This document shows, piece by piece, positions 962 to 17,158 of a DNA stretch of 32,000 bases (positions are counted from its first letter, which is position 1; each line of letters starts with the position of its first letter). The stretch is from Peptococcus simiae (GTDB lineage Bacteria; Bacillota; Peptococcia; Peptococcales; Peptococcaceae), in NCBI RefSeq assembly GCF_046097595.1, contig NZ_JBJUVG010000003.1, positions 122,054 through 154,053 of the forward strand, read 5' to 3'. The notes beneath the pieces were generated by a model. It saw only the letters and a list, made by a program, of their open reading frames with translations, was not told where the DNA came from and searched no databases. The translations under genes were made by a program, and so were the position numbers.

Positions 962-1112
962 AGTACCCGTATCCTCCTAAAGGTAATGTATGGCTAAAGT
1001 AGCACAAGGGCGAGGCACTTGTCAACTGAAGCCCTCGGTCCCGGGAGGATTGTGGTTTTATCTTAAGAGATGTCAGTAATGAACCGACCGGATGTCGGAT
1101 GAGGAGGCAAAT

Positions 1113-1742
1113 ATGCAAGCAGCGAGAAAAATCATGATGACCTTTACCGAAGGAGATAGCCCGGTCTGGCGGGAGCTCCTGGTCCCCTACCAGGCCACGG
1201 CTGCAGACTTGGGCCGCTGGCTGAGCCTGGCCGGAGGCTATAGCGGCCGGGAAAGCTGGGAGCTCCTCTGCCATGAGTTCAAAATGCGGATTACCGAAGA
1301 CCGGCAGCTCCTGGATGAAGCCAAGGCCCTCAAGGCCCAGCGCCGGGCCGAGGCAGAGGCCAAGGGGGAAGAAGTGGCCGAAGTGGCCGGCGAAACCATG
1401 ATCGTCCGGGCATCGGACCTCCCCCTGGACCCCTTCTTAGCCGACCACCCTAAGCTCACCTTTATTTATGACATGACCGACGAATGGCGCTGGGAGATGA
1501 CCGCCGAGGATATGGACGAGCCGGTGGCCGGCCAGCTCCCCCGCCTAATCCAGGGGATGGGGACGGCCCCCTTTGTCGGTGTCGGTGGCCTGCAGGGCTA
1601 CTATGACTTGGTCAGTGAGCTCACCGAGGATGGGCCGGAGGCCAAGGCCATCAGGGACTGGCTGGACCGGGCGGGCCTCTTCTTTTATGACGCCGACCGG
1701 GTCCAGGCCGCCCTGGGTCAAGAAGGGGAAAATAAGCAGTAA
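1113..1742 (+). CDS. pRiA4b ORF-3-like (MM3350-like) domain protein
   Basis: ORF 1092..1742. I prefer ATG 1113 because GAGGAGG sits 5 nt upstream. Family-like blocks: PVWRELLVP, HEF, IYDMTDEWRWEM, PRLIQGMGTAPFVGVGGLQGYYDL. An Ala/Glu/Lys-rich segment is inserted mid-domain. Confidence 0.55.
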   Translation: MQAARKIMMTFTEGDSPVWRELLVPYQATAADLGRWLSLAGGYSGRESWELLCHEFKMRITEDRQLLDEAKALKAQRRAEAEAKGEEVAEVAGETMIVRASDLPLDPFLADHPKLTFIYDMTDEWRWEMTAEDMDEPVAGQLPRLIQGMGTAPFVGVGGLQGYYDLVSELTEDGPEAKAIRDWLDRAGLFFYDADRVQAALGQEGENKQ

Positions 1743-1862: not shown

Positions 1863-3050
1863 ATGAAAATGGCAGGCTTAACCCCGGAAGGATCTGGGGA
1901 TGTCCTGATGCCCCAGGCGGCCCGGGAGTACCGGGTAGCCGGTGACTTGCGCCGCTTATTCGGCCGCTATGGCTATGAAGAAGTGCGGACACCGGGCCTC
2001 GAGTATTATGACGTTTTTACCGATAAAAAACGCTACTTTCCCCAAGAAAATATGGTGAAGTCCATAGACCGCCATGGCCGGCTGACGGTCGTCCGGCCGG
2101 ATGCCACCGTCCCCATTGCCCGCTTGGTGGCCAGCAAGCTTTCCGGCAAGGCCCTGCCCCTGCGGCTCTTTTATGACGAAATGATTTTTAGAAACTCCTC
2201 CACCCTCCAGGGCTTTTCCAATGAAATGCACCAGTGCGGGGTGGAGCTGCTGGGCAGCCGGGCCTACCGGGCCGATGCGGAAATGATTGCCCTTAGTTGT
2301 GCCGCCCTCAAGGCAACCGGCCTGACCAGTTACCGGCTGGAGCTGAGCCATGTAGGGGTTGTGGAGGCCCTGATCCGGGCCCTGGCAGTGGATGAGGACC
2401 TGGCTGACCAGATCCGGACCTCCCTGGAAGAGAAAAACTTCTCCCGGCTCAGGGACCTCCTGGCCCCCTATGGCCAGGGGCCGGTCGTCGAAGCCTTCCT
2501 GGCCCTGCCTGGCCTTTTCGGCGACTATGCTATTTTAGACAAGGCCCGGGCCCTCCTGGTCCCGGCCAGTCCGGAAGTGGGGCCAATCCTGGATGAGCTG
2601 GCCCGACGCTATGCCCTGGCCCAAAGCCTCTGCCGGGAGGATCACATCATGTTGGACCTGAGCCTGACCAACCAGGCCGACTACTACACCGGCCTGGTCT
2701 TTCGCGGCTATGTGGGCGGCAGCGGCGAGGCGGTCCTGTCCGGTGGCCGCTATGACAGCCTCCTGGAGACTTTTAACTACCCCATTCCGGCCATTGGCTT
2801 CGGCGTCCGGGTGGACCTCATTGCCCAGGTCCTGAACCGCCGCCGGCGGCCGGAGACAGAGCCCTTTTACCTCCTCTATGCAGGGCCGGAGGACCTACCT
2901 GCCGCCCTCAGTTGGCGGGCAGACCGGTCAGACCGGCTGGTCCTGGCCATGGCTGACCGGGTGGAGGACCTCGAAGAAGAGGCGGCCCGCTTAGGGGCCC
3001 GAGGAATCATCATCTATAAAGATGGCGACATACACTGGCAGGAGGACTGA
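1863..3050 (+). CDS. hisZ: ATP phosphoribosyltransferase regulatory subunit
   Basis: 395-aa ORF with HisRS-paralogue blocks (RTPGLEYYDVF, VRPDATVPIARL, YYTGLVFRGY). It directly precedes a short-form hisG. AAAGGAG RBS. Confidence 0.9.
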   Translation: MKMAGLTPEGSGDVLMPQAAREYRVAGDLRRLFGRYGYEEVRTPGLEYYDVFTDKKRYFPQENMVKSIDRHGRLTVVRPDATVPIARLVASKLSGKALPLRLFYDEMIFRNSSTLQGFSNEMHQCGVELLGSRAYRADAEMIALSCAALKATGLTSYRLELSHVGVVEALIRALAVDEDLADQIRTSLEEKNFSRLRDLLAPYGQGPVVEAFLALPGLFGDYAILDKARALLVPASPEVGPILDELARRYALAQSLCREDHIMLDLSLTNQADYYTGLVFRGYVGGSGEAVLSGGRYDSLLETFNYPIPAIGFGVRVDLIAQVLNRRRRPETEPFYLLYAGPEDLPAALSWRADRSDRLVLAMADRVEDLEEEAARLGARGIIIYKDGDIHWQED

Positions 3051-3051
3051 C

Positions 3052-3675
3052 ATGTTGAGAATAGCCTTAACCAAGGGCCGGCTGGAAAAGGAAGCTGTGG
3101 CCCTCATGAAGCACGCCGGTTACGATACCGAGGCCCTGGCCGACAAGGGCCGCCGCCTGATCCTGCCGGTCGGCGATGATATAGAGGTTTTACTGGCCAA
3201 GGCCCCGGATGTTATCACCTATGTCATCCATGGGGTCTGTGACCTGGGGATTGTCGGTAAGGACACCATCATGGAATACGGCGGCTCCTTTTACGAAGTC
3301 CTGGACCTGGGCTTCGGCAAATGCCGCTTTGCCCTGGCCGTCCCCAAGGGGAGTGACTTTTATGCCGATGGCATTAGCCACCGGATCGCCAGCAAGTACC
3401 CCAATGTCACCCGGGACTATTTTGCGCGGAAGGGCATGGATGTGGGTATAATAAAAATAGAAGGGTCTGTTGAATTGGCGCCCCTGGTGGGCCTGGCAGA
3501 CGGCATTGTTGATATTGTTGAAACCGGGACCACCCTCAAGGAAAATGGTCTGGAGGCCATTGAGGATGTTGCGGACCTGTCTGCCCGGCTCATTGTCAAT
3601 ACAGCGGCTATGAAGCTCAAGTACCCGGCCATAGAAGCCTTTATCGACCGGATTGCCCAGGAGGTGGACCAATGA
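3052..3675 (+). CDS. hisG: ATP phosphoribosyltransferase, short form
   Basis: MLRIALTKGRL start at ATG 3052, with GGAGGA upstream. The track's 3022 start would overlap hisZ. At ~207 aa it is the short form that requires HisZ. Confidence 0.92.
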   Translation: MLRIALTKGRLEKEAVALMKHAGYDTEALADKGRRLILPVGDDIEVLLAKAPDVITYVIHGVCDLGIVGKDTIMEYGGSFYEVLDLGFGKCRFALAVPKGSDFYADGISHRIASKYPNVTRDYFARKGMDVGIIKIEGSVELAPLVGLADGIVDIVETGTTLKENGLEAIEDVADLSARLIVNTAAMKLKYPAIEAFIDRIAQEVDQ

Positions 3676-4961
3676 TTACAGAACTAGCACTGGGGAGCCC
3701 GGCCTGTGACCGTTTCCTTGACCGCCTGGCCAGCCGCATCCAGGCCCCGGACCCGGACATGTTGGCCCGGGTCGAGGCCATCCTGGCTGCGGTCCGGACC
3801 GAGGGCGATGCCGCCCTTTGCCGCTTTAGCGAAGCATTTGATGGCTTTAAGGGGCCAGTGACCTTTTTGACCCCGGCTGACTGTCAAGTGGCCCTGGAAG
3901 GCCTGGACCCCGGCCTGCAGGCAGCCCTGGACAAGGCCGCCCGGCACATCCGGGCCTTTCATGAAAGGCAGCTGACCAAGGGCTTTGTCCTGGACAAGGG
4001 CCGGGGGGTCCGGCTGGAGCAGCGGGTTCTTCCCCTCCAACGGGTGGGTCTCTATGTACCGGGGGGGCGGGCCGCCTATCCCTCAACGGTTTTGATGAAC
4101 GCCATCCCGGCCCGGCTTGCTGGGGTGGAAGACCTGATTGTGGCCACCCCGCCGGGGAAGGAGGGGCTTGTCAACCCCATGACCCTGGCGGCCTGTGCCG
4201 TCGCCGGGGTGGACCGGGTCCTCCTGGCCGGTGGCGCCCAGGCCTGTGCCGCCCTGGCTTACGGGACCGCCTCCGTGCCCAAGGTGGATAAGATCACCGG
4301 GCCCGGTAATGCCTATGTGGCCACAGCTAAACGCCTCCTCTACGGGACGGTGGATATTGATATGATTGCCGGCCCGTCGGAGATTGTTATTGTGGCCGAG
4401 GCGGGGGTTAACCCGGCCTGGCTGGCCGCCGACCTCCTGGGCCAGTGTGAACACGACCCCCAGGCTGCCGGCATCCTCATTACACCGGATGCTGACCTGG
4501 CCCAGGCCGTCCGGCTGGCGGTCGCTGACCAGGTCAGCCGGGCCCCCCGGGCGGCCATTATGAAGGAGGCCCTGGCCAATTATTCAGCTATTATTGTGAC
4601 CCAAGACTTGGACGAGGCCCTGACCCTGGCCAATGACCTGGCCCCGGAACACCTGGAGCTGGTCGGCGAGGGGCCGGAAGGCCGCCTGGACCAGGTCCGG
4701 CATGCGGGCAGTGTATTTTTAGGCCCCTATACACCGGAAGCCGTCGGAGACTATATGGCCGGGACCAACCACGTCCTGCCCACCGGGGGGACGGCCCGGT
4801 TCTTCTCCCCCCTAGGGGTGGAAGACTTCACCCGGCGGATGCAGGTGTCCCGCTATTCCCGGGCCGCCCTGGCTGAAGATGCCCCGGCCATCCTGGCCTT
4901 TGCAGAGGCGGAAGGCCTCTATGCCCATGGCCGGTCGGTAGAGATAAGGAGTGAAGACTGA
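3672..4961 (+). CDS. hisD: histidinol dehydrogenase
   Basis: 429 aa. ATGA overlap with hisG. HisD-like blocks: GLYVPGG.AAYPS, GPGNAYV, IAGPSE, QCEHD, NHVLPT. Confidence 0.95.
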   Translation: MITELALGSPACDRFLDRLASRIQAPDPDMLARVEAILAAVRTEGDAALCRFSEAFDGFKGPVTFLTPADCQVALEGLDPGLQAALDKAARHIRAFHERQLTKGFVLDKGRGVRLEQRVLPLQRVGLYVPGGRAAYPSTVLMNAIPARLAGVEDLIVATPPGKEGLVNPMTLAACAVAGVDRVLLAGGAQACAALAYGTASVPKVDKITGPGNAYVATAKRLLYGTVDIDMIAGPSEIVIVAEAGVNPAWLAADLLGQCEHDPQAAGILITPDADLAQAVRLAVADQVSRAPRAAIMKEALANYSAIIVTQDLDEALTLANDLAPEHLELVGEGPEGRLDQVRHAGSVFLGPYTPEAVGDYMAGTNHVLPTGGTARFFSPLGVEDFTRRMQVSRYSRAALAEDAPAILAFAEAEGLYAHGRSVEIRSED

Positions 4962-5980
4962 TGGCCCCGGAAAAAATACGCTTAAATGCCAATGAAAGCC
5001 CCTTTAGCCTCAGCGGTGCCAGCCGGGAGCGGTTGGCCCATGCCTTAAATGACCTGGCCTATAACCGTTACCCCGACCCCGAGGCCCGGGACTTGATTCG
5101 GGCCTTTAGCGCCCACTACCGGGTGGCTCCGGCCCAGGTCATTGCCGGCAACGGGTCCGATGAACTCCTCCAGCTTTTGATGCTCGCATATGCCAAGGCC
5201 GGCAAGCCGCTGGCCCTGACCAGCCCAGATTTTTCCATGTATGACCGCTATGCCCGGTTGGCCGGGGTGGAGACCCTGGCCTTGCCCAAGGACGAGGCTG
5301 GCCGCCTGGACGGCCCCGCCTACCTGGCCGCAGCCCAGGCTGCCGGCTGCGGCATGCTCCTCTTTTCCAACCCCTGTAACCCCATGGGCCAGGGCCTGAG
5401 CCGGGAAGGGGTCTTGGACCTGGCCGCCGCCTTTGATGGTCTGGTGGTCGTTGACGAGGCCTATATGGACTTCTGGGACCAGAGCGTCCTGGACCGGGTC
5501 CGTCCGGAGGGCAACCTGGCCGTTTTACGGACGGCCTCCAAGGCCTTTGGCCTGGCGGCCCTGCGCTTGGGTTTCGGGGTCCTGCCGACCGGGCTTTTGG
5601 AGGACATGCGGGCCCTTAAGAGCCCCTATAATGTCAGCAGCCTGTCCCAGGTCATCGGGAGTCAGCTCTATGACCAGCCGGACCAGCTGGCCGACCGGAT
5701 TGCCAGTATCGTCGCCGGCCGGGAAAAGCTGCAGGCAGCTCTGGAAGACTTGGTCAGGGGCCGGCCCGGCTACCGGGTCTACCCCTCTGTGACGAACTTT
5801 ATTTATTTTGAAGTCCCTGATGCCCCGGCCCTGGACGATTATTTACAGGGGCAGAGGATCATCATCCGCCGCTTTGGAGACCGGGGCCTGCGGGTCACCT
5901 GCGGCTTACCTGAAGAAAACGCAGCCTTTATACAAGCAGTTGCTGATTTTTTAGAAAGGAGGCCAGATGATGAGTATTGA
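4961..5980 (+). CDS. hisC: histidinol-phosphate aminotransferase
   Basis: 339 aa. TGATG overlap with hisD. Blocks: LNANESP, YPDP, GNGSDE, NPCNPMG, VVDEAY, RTASKAFGLAALRLG. Confidence 0.93.
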   Translation: MAPEKIRLNANESPFSLSGASRERLAHALNDLAYNRYPDPEARDLIRAFSAHYRVAPAQVIAGNGSDELLQLLMLAYAKAGKPLALTSPDFSMYDRYARLAGVETLALPKDEAGRLDGPAYLAAAQAAGCGMLLFSNPCNPMGQGLSREGVLDLAAAFDGLVVVDEAYMDFWDQSVLDRVRPEGNLAVLRTASKAFGLAALRLGFGVLPTGLLEDMRALKSPYNVSSLSQVIGSQLYDQPDQLADRIASIVAGREKLQAALEDLVRGRPGYRVYPSVTNFIYFEVPDAPALDDYLQGQRIIIRRFGDRGLRVTCGLPEENAAFIQAVADFLERRPDDEY

Positions 5981-6548
5981 ACGCCGCCGCCATACCAAAG
6001 AGACGGACATTCATCTGGTACTTGACTTAGACGGGAATGGCCATACCAATATTGATACAGGCATTGGCTTTTTTGACCACATGCTGACCGCCCTGGCCGT
6101 CCATGCCGGTTGGGACCTGACCCTTTACTGCAACGGTGACCTGGAAGTCTGCGGCCACCACACGGTGGAAGACTGTGGGATTGTCCTGGGGGATGCCCTC
6201 CACCAGGCCCTAGGCACCAAGACCGGCCTGGTCCGCTACGGCCATGCCTATATCCCCATGGATGAGGCCCTGGTCCGCTGCGTGGTCGATGTCAGTGGCC
6301 GGCCCTACCTGGCCTTTGATGCGACCTTTACCGCCCCGACCGTCGGCCAGCTGGATACCCAGCTCGTTGAGGAATTTTTCCGGGCCTTTGCCATGCATGC
6401 CGGCATTACCCTGCATATTGCCGTCTTATCCGGTAAAAATGACCACCACTGCATTGAGACCATGTTTAAGAGTGTGGCCCATGCCATGCGGAAAGCCCTT
6501 ATGAAGCGAGATGGTGTCTTATCAACAAAGGGCGTCTTCCACGCCTGA
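5967..6548 (+). CDS. hisB: imidazoleglycerol-phosphate dehydratase (monofunctional)
   Basis: 193 aa. Blocks: RHTKETDI, GIGFFDHML, HHTVED, HHCIE. There is no phosphatase domain. Overlaps hisC by 14 nt. Confidence 0.95.
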   Translation: MMSIERRRHTKETDIHLVLDLDGNGHTNIDTGIGFFDHMLTALAVHAGWDLTLYCNGDLEVCGHHTVEDCGIVLGDALHQALGTKTGLVRYGHAYIPMDEALVRCVVDVSGRPYLAFDATFTAPTVGQLDTQLVEEFFRAFAMHAGITLHIAVLSGKNDHHCIETMFKSVAHAMRKALMKRDGVLSTKGVFHA

Positions 6549-6566
6549 TTCACAAAGGAGGCAAAG

Positions 6567-7301
6567 ATGATTATTTTACCTGCCATTGATATCAAGGGGG
6601 GCACCTGTGTCCGCCTCTATCAAGGAGACCTGACCACCGCCCATAAAGTGGCCGACAGCGCCCTGGATACCGCCAAAAAATTCGAAGCCCTGGGCTGCCG
6701 CTGGCTGCATATGGTGGACCTGGACGGCGCCCTCCAGGGCATGGCCTTAAATAGCGGGATCTTTTTAGAAATTGCCAAACGGACCAAGCTGCGGATTGAA
6801 CTGGGCGGGGGCATCCGGACCGCTGACCAGATCCGCCACTACCTAAACAAGGGTATCCGGCGGGTGGTTTTAGGGTCGATTGCCATTGAAGAGCCCAATT
6901 TTGTCCGCCGGGCCGTTGCCAACTTCGGGCCCGAATCGGTGGCCGTCGGTATTGATGCCAAGGATGGCTACATTTGCGGTGACGCCTGGACTTCCACCAG
7001 CGATATCCACTACACCGAAATGGCTGAAAAAATGGCAGATATGGGTGTCCGGACCTTTATTTACACAGATATCAGCCGGGACGGGACCCTGACCGGGCCG
7101 GACTTAGAAGGGCTGGCCGCCCTGCGCCAGGCCCTGCCTGAGGCGGAAATCATCGCCTCCGGCGGAGTCCGGACCGCAGCAGACATCCGGGCCATCAAGG
7201 ACCTGGCCATTGACGGGGTCATTTGCGGCAAGGCCATCTATGAAGGGACCCTGGACCTCAGTGAAGCCCTGGAGATTGCTAGAGGTGAAGACCATGTCTA
7301 A
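6567..7301 (+). CDS. hisA: ProFAR isomerase
   Basis: 244 aa. Blocks: IILPAIDIKGG.CVRL, HMVDLDGA, GGGIR, ASGGV. It starts 18 nt after the hisB stop, so there is no room for hisH. Confidence 0.95.
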   Translation: MIILPAIDIKGGTCVRLYQGDLTTAHKVADSALDTAKKFEALGCRWLHMVDLDGALQGMALNSGIFLEIAKRTKLRIELGGGIRTADQIRHYLNKGIRRVVLGSIAIEEPNFVRRAVANFGPESVAVGIDAKDGYICGDAWTSTSDIHYTEMAEKMADMGVRTFIYTDISRDGTLTGPDLEGLAALRQALPEAEIIASGGVRTAADIRAIKDLAIDGVICGKAIYEGTLDLSEALEIARGEDHV

Positions 7302-8046
7302 GAAAAAAATTATTCCCTGCCTGGACACCAGAGACGGCAAGGTCGTCAAGGGCGTCCACTTTGAAGATGTCAAGGACGTGGGTAGTCCTGCCGACCTGGC
7401 CCAGCGCTATACCCGGGAGGGGGCCGATGAACTGGTCGTCCTGGATATCACCGCCGGGCCGGAAGGCCGGTCCACCCGGCTGGATGTCTTAAAAAGCGTC
7501 TGTGCCGCCACCGACCTGCCGGTGACCCAGGGGGGCGGCATCCGGTCCCTGGAAGATATTGAGGCCGCCCTGGCGGCCGGGGCCAGCCGGGTTGGCATTA
7601 ATTCAGCTGCTGTCCAAAAGCCGGACCTCATCCGGGCCGGCGCTGAAAAATTTGGCAGCGAGACCATCGTAGCCGCCATTGACGCCAAAAAAGTGGGCCC
7701 GACCTGGCAGGTCTTCGTTGCCGGCGGCCAGGAAAATACCGGCAAGGACCTCCTGGCCTGGGCCCGGGAAGTGGAGAACCTGGGGGCCGGAGCCATCCTC
7801 CTGACCTCCATTGATGCCGATGGCACCAAGGCCGGCTATGACCTGGATATGACCCGGGCCGTTACCGAGGCTGTTTCCATTCCGGTGATCGCCTCCGGGG
7901 GCGCCGGTAGTGTCCAGGACATGGTTGACGTCCTCAAGGAGACCAACTGTGCCGCCGCCCTGGCCGCCTCCATTTTCCACTTCGGTGAGACCTCTGTCGG
8001 GGACATCAAGGCTGCCTTGGAGGCCGCAGGCCTGGAGGTTGACTGA
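7294..8046 (+). CDS. hisF: imidazole glycerol phosphate synthase cyclase subunit
   Basis: I prefer ATG 7294 ([20 protein letters not shown]), which makes an ATGTCTAA overlap with the hisA stop. The track's 7210 start lies inside hisA. Blocks: [29 protein letters not shown]. Confidence 0.95.
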
Positions 8047-8387
8047 TGCAGGACCTGGCCGCCTACTTTGAAAAGTCCGCCCTGGTGCCGGCCATCGTCC
8101 AGGACGCCGACACCGGCGCCGTCCTCATGCTGGCCTATATGAATGAGGCCGCCCTAAGGGAGACCCTGGCCCTGGGGGAAACGGTTTTTTGGAGCCGGTC
8201 CCGTCAGACCCTTTGGCACAAGGGGGCCACCAGCGGCAATACCCAGACAGTCCTCTCCATTACTGCCGACTGCGACAAGGACAGCCTGCTCATCAGGGTC
8301 CGGCCCGCCGGCCCGGCCTGCCATACCGGGGCAGTGACCTGTTTTTTTAATGATATTCTTAAAGAAAACGATAGGGGGAACCTGTGA
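8046..8387 (+). CDS. hisI: phosphoribosyl-AMP cyclohydrolase
   Basis: 113 aa. Blocks: [37 protein letters not shown] overlap with hisF. Confidence 0.93.
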
Positions 8388-8710
8388 TGCAAAGTCTTGA
8401 CCAGCTTTACCAGGTGGTTCGTTGCCGGCAGGCTGACCCTTTTGAAGGCTCTTATACCGCCTACTTATTTGAAGAGGGCCTGGATAAGATTTTGAAAAAG
8501 GTAGGGGAAGAGGCCGCCGAGGTCATCATTGCGGGCAAAAATACCGACCGGGCTGACCTGACCGGGGAAATCTGCGACCTCCTCTACCACCTGACCGTCC
8601 TCATGGCGGAAAAGGGCCTGGACCCGGCTACCATCGATAGTGAACTGGCCCGGCGGGCGGAAAAAATTGGCAATAAAAAGCCCAGCCATGCCAGCGACCC
8701 CGAGAGCTAA
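8387..8710 (+). CDS. hisE: phosphoribosyl-ATP pyrophosphatase
   Basis: ~107 aa. Blocks: SYTAYLF..G.DKILKKVGEEAAEV, E.CDLLYHL. ATG 8387 overlaps the hisI TGA by one base; GTG 8384 is an alternative start. Confidence 0.9.
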   Translation: MQSLDQLYQVVRCRQADPFEGSYTAYLFEEGLDKILKKVGEEAAEVIIAGKNTDRADLTGEICDLLYHLTVLMAEKGLDPATIDSELARRAEKIGNKKPSHASDPES

Positions 8711-11016: not shown

Positions 11017-11044
11017 TGACATTTGTTCCATCTTCCGATATACT
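11017..11044 (+). promoter_or_regulatory. promoter of tRNA-Ser
   Basis: TTGACA (11017-11022), 16-nt spacer, TATACT (11039-11044), about 20 nt upstream of the tRNA. Confidence 0.65.
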
Positions 11045-11063
11045 TAATATCGGCTTTTCACTT

Positions 11064-11152
11064 GGAGAGATGTCCGAGCTTGGCTGAAGGAGCACGACTG
11101 GAAATCGTGTATACGGGAAACCGTATCGAGGGTTCGAATCCCTCTCTCTCCG
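11064..11152 (+). tRNA. tRNA-Ser (anticodon GGA)
   Basis: Folded by hand. Acceptor GGAGAGA/TCTCTCC. Anticodon stem CACGA/TCGTG with loop CTGGAAA. Long class-II variable arm (TATACGGGAAACCGTAT). T-arm GAGGG-TTCGAAT-CCCTC. Discriminator G; no CCA is encoded. Confidence 0.9.
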
Positions 11153-11157
11153 TCTAC

Positions 11158-11194
11158 CCCCGATCCGGGATATTCCGGATCGGGGTCTTTTTTT
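11158..11194 (+). terminator. terminator after tRNA-Ser
   Basis: CCCCGATCCGG...CCGGATCGGGG hairpin followed by TCTTTTTTTT. Confidence 0.85.
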
Positions 11195-11229
11195 GTTCAA
11201 AAATAAGGGGCCCAGCCAGGGGCAGGTAT

Positions 11230-11258
11230 AAAAAAAGGCCACCGGTTGGACGGTGGCC
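11230..11258 (-). terminator. terminator of the GRE operon (minus strand)
   Basis: On the minus strand: GGCCACCG-TCCAAC-CGGTGGCC followed by T7. Confidence 0.8.
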
Positions 11259-11301
11259 CAGTAAAGGGTTTTAATCTAACGTTTGAGGCGTAGGCCGAAA
11301 G

Positions 11302-12222
11302 CTAGGCATCTGTCACAGGGTCGCAGCCGGCCTGCCGGATGACCGCCTTGAGGGTCTGGATATGGGATGGGTCAGGGGCCTGGTAGAGGGGCTGGTCCTG
11401 GCCCAGGGCCTGGGCCTTGTCCCGTCCCAGGGCGTGGTAGGGGAGGAGGTCAATGGCCGGGTCCTGGGCGTATTGGGCCACAAACTGGGCCAGCCGGCGG
11501 ATATGGTCCGGGTCATCATTGACCCCCTGCAAGAGGGGGATTCGGACGATGACCCTGGGATGCCGGGCGGCCAGCCGCTTAAAGTTGTCCTGGATTAGGC
11601 GGTTGTCCAGGCCGGTCAGCTGGCGGTGCCGGGCCGGGTCCATGTGCTTGAGGTCGAAGAAGACCAGGTCCAGCCGGGCCAGGGTCGGCCAGAGGCGGTC
11701 AAAGTCAAAGTAGCCACAGGTTTCCATGGCCTGGCTGATGGCCAGGTCGTAGAAGCGTTGGCTTAACCGGTCTAAGAAAGCCGCCTGACCGGTGCATTCG
11801 CCACCGGAATAGGTCACGCCCCCGCCGGAAGCGGTGAAAAAGGACTGGTAGGGGAGGACGGCCTGGACCAGGTCGTCGACGGTGTAGGCCGAGATGGTTG
11901 GCCGGCGGGCGCCTGTCGGGCAGGCGGTGGCACAAAGGCCGCAGCCTTGGCACCGGGCCCGGTCCTGGGCCCGGCTGAGGTCTAAGCCTCCGGGATAGGG
12001 GCAGACGGCCCGGCAGGCCTGGCAGGCCTGACACTTATCCGGGTAGAAGAGGATGGCCTTTTTCAGGCTGGCCGTTTCCGGGTTGGCGCACCAGCGGCAG
12101 GCCAGGGGGCAGCCGGCAAAGAAAAAGGTGGTCCGGATGCCATCGCCATCATGGACGGAAAAATGCTGGATATTGGTCAGGTAGCCATAGAGGGGGCCGG
12201 TGGTCGGTTTAGAAGCTGTCAT
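11302..12222 (-). CDS. glycyl-radical enzyme activating enzyme (radical SAM, two auxiliary ferredoxin-like clusters)
   Basis: Radical-SAM motif CPLACRWC, plus CQACQACRAVCP and CQGCGLCATACP. I prefer the ATG at 12222-12220 (MTASKPTTG), which overlaps the GRE 3' end by 14 nt. The track start is 12246. Confidence 0.9.
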   Translation of the reverse strand: MTASKPTTGPLYGYLTNIQHFSVHDGDGIRTTFFFAGCPLACRWCANPETASLKKAILFYPDKCQACQACRAVCPYPGGLDLSRAQDRARCQGCGLCATACPTGARRPTISAYTVDDLVQAVLPYQSFFTASGGGVTYSGGECTGQAAFLDRLSQRFYDLAISQAMETCGYFDFDRLWPTLARLDLVFFDLKHMDPARHRQLTGLDNRLIQDNFKRLAARHPRVIVRIPLLQGVNDDPDHIRRLAQFVAQYAQDPAIDLLPYHALGRDKAQALGQDQPLYQAPDPSHIQTLKAVIRQAGCDPVTDA

Positions 12223-14575
12223 GGCTATTCCGGTCAATGATGGCATCCTGCATAGACCGGGACAGGTTCACAAATTGGGTGGAATAGCCGGCCACGCGGA
12301 CGAGGAGGTCCCGGTAGTTTTCCGGGTTTTTCTGGGCAGCGTAGAGGGTCTCGTTGGAGACGGTATTGAACTGGACATGGAAGCCGCCCAGGTTAAAGAA
12401 ACTCTTGATCATATGGCCCAGGTTGGCCCGACCCCGGGGATTGTTGACCAGGCTGGGGCTCATCCGGAGGTTCATAAGGGTCCCACCGGAATGGACGTCC
12501 TGGTTGAGCTTGGCGGCGCTCCGCATGGCGGCCAGGGGGGTGGACTGGTCGGTCCCTGCATAGGGGGAGACCCCTTCGGAAATCGGGGCCCGGGCATGGC
12601 GACCATCCGGTGTAGCCCCTAGGATTTTCCCGGTGGGTAGGTAGTTGGAAATCCCCATAAAGGCAGACTTAAAGGCATTTCCATTGATGTCCTTATAGCT
12701 GTTGATGGCCTCATACTGGTGGTTGGCGATTTTAACGGCAATCCGGTCTACTTCATCGATGTTGTTGCCATACTTGGGTAGGTTGAGGATCTTTTGCCGG
12801 AGGACTTCATAGCCGGCCCAATCGGCTTCCAGGGCCTGGTGGAGGTCCTCGGCCGAGACGGTCTTTTCATCAAAGACCAGGTGCTTGATGGCATAGAGGG
12901 CATTGGCGCAGACGGCAATCCCCATGGAGGTGATGACCGGGCCCACATTGTATTCCGCCCCACAGTCGACCAGGTCCCGGCCATTTTCCAGGCAGGCGCC
13001 TAAGGTGGCGGACAGGAAGGGACGGGGGGCCTGGTCCCGGTGGAGCTTCTGGGCCAGGAGGGTATTGGATACGGACAGGGCGACCAGCCGGTCAAATTCA
13101 GCAAAGAAGGCCGCTTCCAGGTCAGCATAGCTGGCGTAGTCCGGCAGGCTTTTGTCGGAAATCCCCTTTTTTTCCCCGGTCAGCCGGAGTTTGCCGCCGG
13201 TTAGGGCAAATTCCAGGGCGGCAGGGATATTGAGGTTGACGGCTGAGGTCCATTCACTGACCTTGCGGAAGTGGGGGACCACGCAGCCGCAGTTATTCCA
13301 GTCCCGGGCATCTGTCGGTGAAATGCCATTGTTTAGGAGCATCTTGTAACCGACTTCATCATTGTGGATGGCCGGGAAACCGGTGCCCAGGGCGACCAGG
13401 TCGGTCACCGCATTGACAAAGGCCTGGGGGGCATCCTGGTGGAGCCGGACCGATAGGCCGGGCTGGTGGGTTTGCAATTCGCCGGTGGCCTTGAGGGCCA
13501 GATAGGAGACGGCATTGGTGGCGTCCTGGCCCTGGCGGTCCTTACCGCCGACGGTGAGGTTTTGGAACTGGTTGTAGCCGGCAAAGAAGTCGGCTGTATT
13601 TGAAGAAATGGTCCAGACCCATTCCGACATCTTGAGCCAGAGAGACTCGATGAGTTCCAGGGCCCAGTCTTCCGTGAGTCGGCCGGCGGCGACGTCTTTT
13701 TCATAATAGGGGAAGGTGTACTGGTCAAACCGGCCCGGGTTCAGGGCCAGGGGGTTTTCGGCTAAGATCCCGCCCAGCTGGGTAAACCAGACAAACTGGA
13801 GGGCCTCCCAGAAGGTGGTGGGCGGGTGTTCCGGCACCCGGCGGCAGTTGGCGGCGATGGTCAGGAGCTCTTCTCGGCGGGCGCCGCCGGCGTCTTTGGC
13901 CAGGGTCTCGGCCTGGTCGGCATAGCGGTTGGCCAGGCGGATAATCCCTTCAGCTGTGAGGATAATGGACCGGTAAAAGGTCATCTTGTCCAAGTCCTCG
14001 GCCCGGGTAGCAGAGAGGCTTTCCAGCTTGGCCTTGGCCTCCCGGATAATGCCGCCAAAGCCCTTGACAAAGAGGACCTCCTGGTAGTCCGGGGTGATTT
14101 CCCCGACAGACTGCCGCCACTTGGAGTCGTTGTCGACGATGGAGGTATCGACGGTGACCTTGGCGGCTTCCGGGTCGACCTGGTTTAAAAAGGCTTCCTC
14201 CAGGCTCTTGCCGGCCCAGTAGGGGAAGACGTGCTTGCGTAAGTAGTCTTTTTGCTCCGGCTCAATGGCATAGGGGTCTTGGGGGCGTTCGGCGAAGCGG
14301 TCCATTTCCCGGTCAACCCAGGACCAGGAAAATTCCGGGGTCAGAACGCCGCACTTCCGGTATTCACCCAGGGCGCCGACAATCAGCTCCCCTTCAAAGA
14401 TGTAGACCCCCAATTCTTCGCAGGTATCCTTAAAGGCCATGGCTCGGCGGATGGGGGTGGCCATGCCTTCGGTCCGTTGGTGGGATTCGGTCCAAATCCG
14501 AGCCCGTTCAATGGAAATATGGGGCATGGTGTTGATGTAGTTGTCTTTGGCTTGACGGATGCGATCAGATAGCAT
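12209..14575 (-). CDS. glycyl radical enzyme, PFL2/glycerol-dehydratase-like fold, substrate unknown
   Basis: 788 aa. C-terminal glycyl motif RVAGYS (Gly763, codon at 12287-12289). Cys loop WNNCGCVVPHF (Cys431, codon at 13283-13285). AAAGGAGG RBS. Confidence 0.9.
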   Translation of the reverse strand: MLSDRIRQAKDNYINTMPHISIERARIWTESHQRTEGMATPIRRAMAFKDTCEELGVYIFEGELIVGALGEYRKCGVLTPEFSWSWVDREMDRFAERPQDPYAIEPEQKDYLRKHVFPYWAGKSLEEAFLNQVDPEAAKVTVDTSIVDNDSKWRQSVGEITPDYQEVLFVKGFGGIIREAKAKLESLSATRAEDLDKMTFYRSIILTAEGIIRLANRYADQAETLAKDAGGARREELLTIAANCRRVPEHPPTTFWEALQFVWFTQLGGILAENPLALNPGRFDQYTFPYYEKDVAAGRLTEDWALELIESLWLKMSEWVWTISSNTADFFAGYNQFQNLTVGGKDRQGQDATNAVSYLALKATGELQTHQPGLSVRLHQDAPQAFVNAVTDLVALGTGFPAIHNDEVGYKMLLNNGISPTDARDWNNCGCVVPHFRKVSEWTSAVNLNIPAALEFALTGGKLRLTGEKKGISDKSLPDYASYADLEAAFFAEFDRLVALSVSNTLLAQKLHRDQAPRPFLSATLGACLENGRDLVDCGAEYNVGPVITSMGIAVCANALYAIKHLVFDEKTVSAEDLHQALEADWAGYEVLRQKILNLPKYGNNIDEVDRIAVKIANHQYEAINSYKDINGNAFKSAFMGISNYLPTGKILGATPDGRHARAPISEGVSPYAGTDQSTPLAAMRSAAKLNQDVHSGGTLMNLRMSPSLVNNPRGRANLGHMIKSFFNLGGFHVQFNTVSNETLYAAQKNPENYRDLLVRVAGYSTQFVNLSRSMQDAIIDRNSHDSF

Positions 14576-14593: not shown

Positions 14594-15142
14594 TCAGTAA
14601 GACATGATATCTTGAAAAACAAGGGTTTCTTCCGTTTCGTTGATGTATTGGTGGCTGCCCGAGGGGACAAAGCGGAAGCCTGTCGGGGCCTTTAACCGGT
14701 GGGGCTGACCGTGACAGATGAGGGTCAGGGTCCCCTGGGTGACAATGATGTGCTCGTACCTGGCATTGGGATGGGCGGTAGAGGTATAGCCCGTGCCGGG
14801 GGCCATGGTGACGTAGAAATAATCGAAACCGGTTTCCGGTGCAAAGGGAAAGACAGGACAGAGCCGGACCGCCCCATCGGCTTCAGTGAGGACCTCTTCC
14901 TGGCCGATGGCCACCTGGAGGTAGCGGTCACTGTCATCGGCCAGGAGGGAGGCAAAAGATACTTTGAAGCCGCCGGCAATTTTCCATAAGGTGGTGATGC
15001 TCGGGGTCGATTCGCCCCGCTCGATTTGGCCTAGCATGGTTTTGGAGACATTACACAGGTCGCTGGCAGCGGCCAGGCTTAGGCTCCGGTCCTTGCGCAG
15101 GGCCTTGAGCCTGTCACCAAGAAAGGGGAAAGGATCGTTCAT
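14594..15142 (-). CDS. XRE-family HTH transcriptional regulator with C-terminal cupin domain
   Basis: I prefer the ATG at 15142-15140 (MNDPFPFLGDRLKALRKDRSLSL...), with AGGAGG upstream. HTH block: SKTMLGQIERGESTPSITTLWKIA. The C-terminal beta-rich cupin-like part has H...H. The track start at 15265 adds 41 unlikely residues. Confidence 0.8.
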   Translation of the reverse strand: MNDPFPFLGDRLKALRKDRSLSLAAASDLCNVSKTMLGQIERGESTPSITTLWKIAGGFKVSFASLLADDSDRYLQVAIGQEEVLTEADGAVRLCPVFPFAPETGFDYFYVTMAPGTGYTSTAHPNARYEHIIVTQGTLTLICHGQPHRLKAPTGFRFVPSGSHQYINETEETLVFQDIMSY

Positions 15143-15178: not shown

Positions 15179-15198
15179 GCGTACGCTATAACGTACGT
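15179..15198. promoter_or_regulatory. candidate operator: twin 8-bp palindromes GCGTACGC-TATA-ACGTACGT
   Basis: Read directly from the sequence. It lies just downstream of the predicted minus-strand -10 (TAATCT, rc of 15201-15206), whose -35 is TTGACA (rc of 15224-15229). Confidence 0.45.
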
Positions 15199-15200
15199 AT

Positions 15201-15229
15201 AGATTAGCAAAGAAGGGGACCCATGTCAA
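15201..15229 (-). promoter_or_regulatory. candidate promoter of the regulator-GRE-activase operon
   Basis: On the minus strand: TTGACA, 17-nt spacer, TAATCT. Confidence 0.5.
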
Positions 15230-16888: not shown

Positions 16889-17158
16889 GTAGCCGCACAC
16901 CGACCATTGAAAAACGCTCCCAAGCGGCAAACCACCAGCCGGCTCGAGCCAGGCACCCCGGCGGCACATATGTGGACCTGCTTATTGCTGCTTCCTTCCG
17001 GACCTGACAAGGTTCACAGGGACATATTGCGTCGGACCCGACTGTCATCACTACTTAATGATCGCCAGACCTTAAAATTACTTCCCGCGGGTCGGCCTCA
17101 GTCCTGCTATAGCGGATTGCAGGTAACAGGGCACCGCTAGCGCCCCACCTAGTGCGGT
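16889..17158 (-). ncRNA. ffs: signal recognition particle RNA, long (Bacillus-type, Alu-domain-containing) form
   Basis: The minus strand contains the near-invariant helix-8 motif GTCAGGTCCGGAAGGAAGCAGC (rc of about 16972-17008). The 5' CCGCAC pairs with the 3' GTGCGG. Length is about 270 nt, and the gene has its own promoter and terminator. End coordinates are approximate. Confidence 0.85.

Follow-up and report, generated by a model that had tools for sequence, protein, structure and literature searches.

The window analysed here, a stretch of 32,000 nucleotides of Peptococcus simiae (contig NZ_JBJUVG010000003.1, positions 122,054 to 154,053), contains on its minus strand a gene for an apparently functional, oxygen-sensitive glycyl radical enzyme (GRE) in which the catalytic Glu of the Cys loop is replaced by a Val. 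We found that this Val433 loop is real, selected and clade-defining and that it comes from an uncharacterised family, whose substrate and chemistry are probably new. Tentatively, we propose that the protein is an active GRE of a discrete uncharacterised subfamily, named here the CGCVVPH clade, which branches as sister to the gut choline trimethylamine-lyase CutC and might carry out a lyase-type reaction on a small cationic or polar substrate. The clade is large, strictly conserved and the closest relative of the medically important CutC; in it the Glu has been swapped for Val and the cation-binding acid has been kept, which makes it a well-defined target for new anaerobic radical chemistry. 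The gene and the residues in question are as follows.

12209..14575, minus strand: GRE gene, 788 amino acids plus stop codon, with PFL-like and Gly_radical domains
13274..13294, minus strand: tip of the Cys loop, N428-C429-G430-C431-V432-V433-P434, codons AAC TGC GGC TGC GTG GTC CCC
13283-13285, minus strand: codon of Cys431, the predicted thiyl site (from alignment)
13277-13279, minus strand: codon of Val433, which replaces the Glu of CXE (from alignment)
13289-13291, minus strand: codon of Cys429, which takes the place of CutC Met487 (from alignment)
14099..14101, minus strand: codon of Glu159, clade-invariant, at the position of His164 in glycerol dehydratase and Asp216 in CutC
12287..12289, minus strand: codon of Gly763, the predicted glycyl radical site in RVAGY (from the sequence)

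The minus-strand reading of 13200..13400 includes aac tgc ggc tgc gtg gtc ccc cac ttc, and the translation of 12209..14575 gives the Cys loop as N-C429-G-C431-V-V433-P-H435, nucleotides 13277-13291 being the codons of C429-G-C431-V-V433. The translation contains HNDEVGYKMLLNNGISPTDARDWNNCGCVVPHF and the RVAGY motif; longer extracts of it are DARDWNNCGCVVPHFRK and LLVRVAGYSTQFVNLSRSMQDAIIDR. The initial annotation of this region had read a GCVVP loop here, and its codons, context and numbering are all correct. It had also described the protein as nearly colinear with clostridial glycerol dehydratase and had taken the Val to stand in place of the catalytic Glu; both statements hold in an alignment of 177 sequences comprising the query, 42 clade members, the C. 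butyricum glycerol dehydratase (GDH, 100% identical to PDB 1r8w_A) and 133 outgroup representatives of clusters at 50% identity, which together with GDH form an outgroup of 134. In this alignment, Cys433, Glu435 and Gly763 of GDH are opposite Cys431, Val433 and Gly763 of the query. HMMER likewise places the query loop 'gcvvp' opposite 'gcvep' of CutC and the longer segment 'dardwnncgcvvphf' opposite 'dardyclmgcvepqk' of Klebsiella CutC. The Cys431 column holds Cys in 133 of the 134 outgroup sequences, and no other Cys with a Glu at its +2 position takes the thiyl place. Cys429 was considered as the true thiyl site and rejected: Cys431, not Glu, stands at its +2, and the alignment puts Cys431 in the thiyl column.

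The Cys+2 column itself contains Glu in 104 of the 134 outgroup sequences. It is absent from the other 30 (about 22%), all of these non-Glu examples being uncharacterised. As far as the alignment tells, loss of the Glu at +2 is uncommon but not unique, which tempers the surprise at Val433. The G-C-x-E loop that had been ascribed to eliminase-type GREs agrees with the June 2026 GRE review, according to which all known GRE eliminases and isomerases keep CXE; no CxV enzyme is listed there, and the Cys-loop Glu is described as hydrogen-bonded to the substrate and as catalytically essential by mutagenesis in CutC (Glu491) and IslA. The query departs from this pattern of the 1,2-eliminases and isomerases, its C431-V-V433 being clade-invariant.

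The remainder of the scaffold is intact, as had been supposed. Pfam finds complete PFL-like and Gly_radical domains (PF02901, 677 bits; PF01228, 112 bits). The GRE glycyl fingerprint RVxG[FWY]x6-8[FL]x4Qx2[IV]x2R (June 2026 GRE review) is complete in the query, where it reads R760-V-A-G763-Y / STQFVN / L / SRSM / Q / DA / I / ID / R782. An AlphaFold2 model built from a 75-sequence alignment has a mean predicted local distance difference test score (pLDDT) of 95 and a predicted template modelling (TM) score of 0.93, and forms the Cys loop as a hairpin with strands 427-429 and 433-435. The top Foldseek matches of this model are CutC structures (TM 0.98, root mean square deviation 1.3-1.4 Å), followed by propanediol and glycerol dehydratases. 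The protein thus combines the features by which the GRE superfamily (PFL-like, IPR004184) is recognised, namely the domains, the fingerprint, a thiyl Cys in a ten-stranded barrel fold and a radical S-adenosylmethionine (SAM) activase. It is strongly supported that Cys431 occupies the universal thiyl position and that the fold is that of the CutC and glycerol dehydratase eliminases; the prediction that the activase encoded next door can install the radical on Gly763 is also strongly supported.

The initial annotation had left open how widely the GCVVP loop occurs and whether its carriers form a discrete clade. In a collection of 5.8 billion proteins, W[NS]NCGCVVP is found in all of the 120 best matches (64-96% identity), which come from Clostridium carboxidivorans, C. 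scatologenes, C. drakei, C. magnum, Sedimentibacter, Geosporobacter, Fusibacter, Desulforamulus, Desulfosporosinus, Negativicutes and Tissierellia. The peptide NCGCVVPH is unchanged in 75/75 related loci from genomes and metagenomes, in which Val433 is encoded by GTG (30), GTT (21), GTA (16) or GTC (8) and the adjacent codons are equally varied. A Val433 that stays constant while all four GTN codons are used is the pattern expected of purifying selection at the amino acid level. Filter-free phmmer, applied to 1.84 billion cluster representatives, revealed a gap: identity to the query is 56% or more within the clade and no higher than 38% in the matches that follow. Among the 150 best representatives of this search, Val at Cys+2 is confined to the CGCVVPH clade; Glu is present in 110, and the remaining residues at this position are Q, D, H, S, A, T, N, G, R and K. 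Judged by these comparisons, the CGCVVPH motif is the signature of a discrete clade and not a one-off.

The clade comes out as monophyletic in a neighbour-joining tree (43/43 sequences, stem 0.39), and its sister group consists of the CutC clusters P0123 and P0127, together with the unnamed cluster P0124. P0123 and P0127 are bona fide CutC, scoring about 1600 bits with TIGR04394 against a cut-off of 1050. All three clusters keep CXE, so that Val433 is the derived state. The alignment contains 66 positions that are clade-invariant yet present in at most 8% of the outgroup, and these cluster at 149-161, 270-279, 335-336, 428-435, 447 and 640-646; we infer from homology with CutC and GDH that the segments holding them would form the active site. 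Clade-specific peptide patterns recovered at least 388 clade-encoding stretches from metagenomes, several of them from human gut assemblies, and a scan of species genomes with query-specific peptide patterns gave one true clade member, P. simiae. The clade is present in sediment, digester and human gut metagenomes, a spread which suggests that its substrate is probably a common small metabolite.

Several other substitutions were seen in the same data. Leu681 (about 12533-12535) replaces the Thr found in 123/134 outgroup GREs (the 'GPT' motif of GDH), and Thr766-Gln767 (about 12275-12280), right after RVAGYS, replace the usual Ala-Tyr/Phe; all these changes are clade-specific and near the Gly loop. 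Outside the clade, the radical Gly is changed to Ala (RVAAY) in the representatives P0165, P0167, P0188 and P0256 and to Thr (RVSTY, RVATY or RVSTW) in P0203, P0215, P0216, P0242 and P0267. These clusters, all among the 150 nearest representatives, resemble the aminoacyl radical enzymes that were described in 2024 (PMC11528403), and some of them also have no Glu at Cys+2.

Although the query most resembles CutC, it is, on all sequence comparisons made here, a member of no named functional family. It scores below every NCBIfam equivalog cut-off, including that of the PFL2/glycerol dehydratase family (TIGR01774, 653.1 bits against 678.2); among the ten nearest outgroup clusters, eight score 712-870 bits with this model, P0127 and P0128 not being listed at an E-value limit of 1e-200. 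CutC (TIGR04394; PDB 5FAU, 5A0U, 9F3W) is the best sequence match (650 bits, 36-38% identity), no PDB entry being closer than 38%, and it shares with the query, besides its sister position in the tree, the Gly/Cys radical architecture and a dedicated activase. However, the query reaches only 679 bits with TIGR04394 against the cut-off of 1050, and its cassette has no microcompartment or cut-cluster genes and carries an XRE-cupin regulator instead. The choline-binding residues Tyr208, Asp216, Phe395, Glu491, Thr502 and Tyr506 of CutC correspond to Ser151, Glu159, Phe337, Val433, Thr443 and Asn447, three of the six being lost. The likeness to glycerol dehydratase (C. butyricum DhaB1, 1R8W) lies in length (788 against 787 amino acids) and fold (TM 0.97), whereas the catalytic residues differ (Glu435 to Val433, His164 to Glu159), as do Ser282 (Ala277), His281 (Leu276), Asp447 (Ser444) and Tyr640 (Met640).

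More distant families share single traits with the query. The thiyl residue of phenylacetate decarboxylase (PAD/PhdB) is Cys482. Like the query, PAD has no Glu at Cys+2, where an essential Gln484 is found (June 2026 GRE review); this residue is, however, not hydrophobic, and the enzyme belongs to a decarboxylase lineage; no close sequence relationship to it was detected, a direct alignment not having been made. The GRE decarboxylase models for HPAD and IAD give 318 bits (NF033715, cut-off 1150) and 398 bits (NF033718, cut-off 1100), and no open reading frame (ORF), hence no HPAD-type small subunit gene, lies between the GRE and activase genes. Two Cys on the loop are otherwise known only from PFL and TdcE (June 2026 GRE review), but these have adjacent C-C and the query has C-G-C; moreover, the similarity to them lies mostly in the C-terminal glycyl radical domain (TIGR01255, 126 bits against 994; 1H16, E=2e-29). 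The protein also does not match the X-succinate synthases: likeness to BssA/MasD amounts to 266 bits with 4pkc and 261 bits with 9o8u, and no small-subunit genes are conserved near the GRE in 47 dereplicated loci.

Nor does the motif turn out to mark a family already characterised. The CGCVVPH family has no NCBIfam equivalog (June 2026), PDB entry (2026) or entry in the June 2026 review, and no paper on the clade was found in the open-access literature by GRE discoveries, motif strings, taxa or papers on sequence similarity networks, a full-text motif search giving no GRE paper. The names under which clade members appear in public databases vary: 'choline trimethylamine-lyase', 'formate C-acetyltransferase', 'benzylsuccinate synthase alpha subunit' and 'dehydrogenase' all occur. 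The catalytic residues support none of them, and we would warn against annotating it as 'choline trimethylamine-lyase', 'formate C-acetyltransferase' or 'benzylsuccinate synthase', which are now in use.

The pocket was mapped by alignment to CutC and GDH, taking the active-site shell of CutC listed in a quantum mechanics/molecular mechanics study (PMC12451663) and transferring it through the CutC orthologue P0127 (offset +2; 14/14 checked residues of the expected identity). The correspondence is as follows.

CutC Tyr208: query Ser151
CutC His209: query Lys152 (conservative)
CutC Asp216: query Glu159 (conservative)
CutC Thr334: query Leu276
CutC Phe389: query Phe331 (identical)
CutC Phe395: query Phe337 (identical)
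CutC Met487: query Cys429
CutC Cys489: query Cys431 (identical)
CutC Glu491: query Val433
CutC Thr502: query Thr443 (identical)
CutC Tyr506: query Asn447
CutC Leu698: query Met640 (conservative)
CutC Ile700: query Ile642 (identical)

Five of these 13 residues are identical between CutC and the query and three are conservative replacements, and all 13 equivalents, Val433 and twelve others, are invariant in 43/43 clade sequences. It is strongly supported by this conservation that the whole predicted substrate pocket has been remodelled and is strictly conserved. According to the mapping, the cation-binding acid, two Phe and the Thr are kept from a CutC-like ancestor, the hydroxyl-binding Glu and both Tyr are lost, and several Asn/Gln and a second loop Cys are gained. 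Glu159 is the only acid among the mapped positions. It supplies the second ionisable residue of β1, where GDH has His164 and CutC has Asp216; in CutC, Asp216 stabilises the cationic trimethylammonium group of choline (PMC12451663). Position 159 is His in 96/134 outgroup sequences and Asp, Asp and Glu in the sister clusters. Since these sister lineages (CutC and P0124) already have an acid there, Glu159 is inherited and not newly placed. The initial annotation had argued from the Val for different chemistry or a relocated base: the loss of the Cys-loop Glu stands and, on the alignment, is the real novelty, whereas the relocated base reduces to a retained ancestral acid.

To describe the genetic context, we inspected nine named genomes or contigs and, among the metagenome stretches, kept 80 loci, which were dereplicated at 95% GRE identity to the 47 already mentioned; the five genes on either side of the GRE were then clustered. 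The activase is immediately downstream of the GRE in 41/47 loci. A homologue of the XRE-cupin regulator is found in 29/47, and in 19 of them it directly precedes the GRE. All other neighbour families are limited to 7 or fewer of the 47 loci, the recurring ones being generic (ABC transporter, sensor kinase, peptidase, P-type ATPase). As only the activase and the regulator recur, the functional unit is regulator, GRE and activase. In the window, this cassette comprises, besides the GRE gene, the following features.

14594..15142, minus strand: XRE-cupin transcriptional regulator (HTH_3 and Cupin_2), 182 amino acids, first gene of the cassette
11302..12246, minus strand: GRE-activating radical SAM enzyme, 314 amino acids (longest ORF), with CPLACRWC and a ferredoxin-like insert
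15180..15229, minus strand: putative promoter/operator, TTGACA at 15229-15224, then the inverted repeat CGTACGTTATAGCGTACG at 15197-15180
11236..11259, minus strand: terminator-like hairpin and T-run, just past the activase stop codon

The start of the activase gene overlaps the end of the GRE gene, and its product scores 292.7 bits with TIGR02494 against a cut-off of 174. The true start of the regulator is the ATG at 15142, with AGGAGG ahead of it; its closest PDB match, and the only close one, is a structural-genomics protein without annotated ligand. In many clade loci (L001, L006, L008, L040, L043, L044, L057 and L061 among them), the stretch that separates the putative promoter from the start of the regulator holds a palindrome related to the inverted repeat. 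Its consensus is roughly YGYTATARCR (examples are ATATGTTATAACATAT and ACGTTATAGCGT), and it is probably the conserved operator of the XRE-cupin repressor. The hairpin likely marks the end of a three-gene operon.

Other neighbours were considered as pathway partners and rejected. The CitMHS/DASS transporter and the PanE-like reductase are beside the cassette in Peptococcus only, and a large signal recognition particle (SRP) RNA gene separates the one from the other. The Na:alanine symporter, Fe-ADH and SDR found beside the 72%-identical homologue P0002 are lineage-specific, and the 'TPP enzyme' near P0002 is a biosynthetic acetolactate synthase. Of the inspected contexts, 4/9 have carbonyl reductases near the cassette, drawn from four unrelated families (Fe-ADH together with SDR in one context, and SDR, AKR and PanE-like in one each), which is at most a weak hint of a carbonyl product.

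A natural deletion allele exists in a second strain. The region NZ_JBKICG010000005.1 (L009) of P. simiae M919-2/1 is syntenic with the window, their nucleotide identity being about 91-93%. Its GRE orthologue (L009 10001-11671; corresponding to window 13067-13739) lacks residues 276-506 through an in-frame deletion of 231 amino acids that takes the Cys loop with it, with breakpoints at a short direct repeat (CCTGGCCC.GAA). The product is the 557-amino-acid protein P0121, and the allele is a natural knockout.

Combining these data, the reaction may be pictured as follows. The Gly763 radical would generate a thiyl radical on Cys431, which would abstract a hydrogen atom from a small substrate. In the canonical reaction the Cys-loop Glu then deprotonates a substrate hydroxyl, giving a ketyl radical able to expel the leaving group; here this cannot happen in that form, because the Glu is an invariant Val. 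The hydrophobic Val433 suggests that no hydroxyl in need of a base stands beside the abstraction site. Glu159, with the retained Phe331, Phe337, Thr443 and Ile642, would probably anchor a cationic (amine-type) or otherwise polar group and would probably be the sole general acid/base. The outcome might be C-X cleavage of the lyase type, or a related radical reaction, of a substrate without a hydroxyl that needs deprotonation at the attacked carbon, and the cassette would probably be induced by its own substrate through the cupin domain of an autoregulated repressor. The steps up to thiyl formation are supported, as activase, Gly763 and Cys431 are conserved, and the later ones are inferred. Several points weigh against this proposal. 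The membership of Glu159, Cys429 and others in the pocket rests on alignment to CutC and GDH, and the clade-specific Asn/Gln suggest a polar pocket and are no proof of a cationic substrate. Glu159 comes from a CutC-like ancestor and hence gives no evidence of compensation. In the 47 loci the cassette is accompanied by no conserved transporter or downstream enzyme, the context being almost without pathway information, and the carbonyl reductases are not conserved and may be coincidental. GRE decarboxylases are also encoded in stand-alone cassettes of GRE, activase and regulator.

This last point bears on the idea that the same scaffold serves another reaction class, either a decarboxylase with a volatile or excreted product or an isomerase/mutase that needs no Cys-loop base, which we regard as possible, if somewhat doubtful. 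The products of GRE decarboxylases need no further enzymes, which fits a self-contained cassette in which regulator and activase alone are conserved in 47 loci; phenylacetate decarboxylase, with its essential Gln484, does without the Glu at +2 as well, and a hydrophobic side chain next to the thiyl Cys would fit a reaction in which no proton is transferred. Sequence, fold and tree, however, place the protein with CutC and the eliminases and not with HPAD, IAD or AAD: the 318-398 bits obtained with NF033715 and NF033718 are far from the cut-offs of 1100-1150, HPAD and AAD come last in the Foldseek top 50, there is no small subunit gene, and the mapped pocket positions contain no Arg for a carboxylate, Lys152 being the only basic residue there. 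Another reading is a canonical 1,2-eliminase acting on a hydroxylated substrate, with water, His435 or Glu159 substituting for the Cys-loop Glu; the chemistry would then be ordinary, with a difference in residue assignment only. His435 (+4) and Glu159 are both clade-invariant, ionisable and near the loop, the fold is the same and reductases are sometimes nearby. We nevertheless consider this unlikely, as CXE is kept in all characterised eliminases and isomerases and Glu491 is essential in CutC (June 2026 GRE review), and as the change from Glu to Val was fixed on a long stem branch with many other pocket changes.

Cys429 could also assume the role of the Glu in a two-cysteine mechanism in which the two, on opposite strands of the loop hairpin, would cooperate as in PFL (radical transfer or thiyl addition) or as in ribonucleotide reductase (a thiol donating protons or electrons). 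Cys429 is clade-invariant in a column that holds Val, Ile or Leu in the outgroup, its CutC counterpart Met487 is one of the active-site residues, and, from the geometry of strands 427-429 and 433-435 in the AlphaFold2 model, residues 429 and 433 should be cross-strand neighbours; PFL and TdcE, as said, are the only precedents for two loop Cys. But a few outgroup clusters in which CXE is kept (P0170, P0200) likewise have a Cys at -2, so that it can be a simple core substitution, the C-G-C spacing is not the adjacent C-C of PFL, and the TIGR01255 score (126 bits) is remote from the cut-off of 994. The Arg positions that we take to bind pyruvate in PFL have no Arg counterpart among the mapped pocket positions, which speaks in the same direction; we regard this mechanism as quite improbable. 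Finally, the protein might be a decayed or non-catalytic GRE homologue, or its family might have been characterised outside the open-access literature; this appears very unlikely. The allele of M919-2/1, whose in-frame 231-amino-acid deletion removes the Cys loop, indicates that the gene is dispensable in that strain, but pocket, Gly fingerprint and adjacent activase are under strong purifying selection across many Bacillota genera, and the family is missing from NCBIfam (June 2026), the PDB (2026) and the June 2026 review.

Returning to an active lyase-type GRE as the preferred reading, a more far-reaching version, which we put forward with reserve as it is rather doubtful, is a GRE reaction type not yet described: a thiyl radical would start the cleavage, or the rearrangement, of a small metabolite that is cationic or polar and has no hydroxyl at the attacked carbon, and the enzyme would be carried on a mobile, substrate-sensing three-gene cassette that is widespread in anaerobic Bacillota including those of the human gut. 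Such a reaction might proceed through an α-amino or α-thio radical, or with Cys429 as a second redox- or proton-active thiol. There are handles for finding the substrate, namely, in the cassette, a probable ligand-sensing repressor with a recognisable operator and, in P. simiae, a natural in-frame knockout beside an intact sister strain.

The cassette is flanked on one side by a tRNA-Ser(GGA) gene and on the other by the divergent transporter and then the SRP RNA gene. A riboswitch search around the cassette gave only these two RNA genes. The wider window is housekeeping (his operon, L9, rubrerythrin, sigma factor, ATP synthase). The features located outside the cassette are listed below.

11063-11154, plus strand: tRNA-Ser(GGA) gene, just beyond the activase
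16893-17157, minus strand: large bacterial SRP RNA gene (190 bits), between the CitMHS/DASS transporter and the PanE-like reductase
1092-1742, plus strand: PRiA4_ORF3-like (plasmid pRiA4b ORF-3-like) gene, just upstream of the his operon
1863-8710: histidine operon, led by hisZ/hisG

An ORF listed at 11023-11274 overlaps the tRNA-Ser gene and is probably spurious, and the ATP synthase genes lie at the right end of the window.

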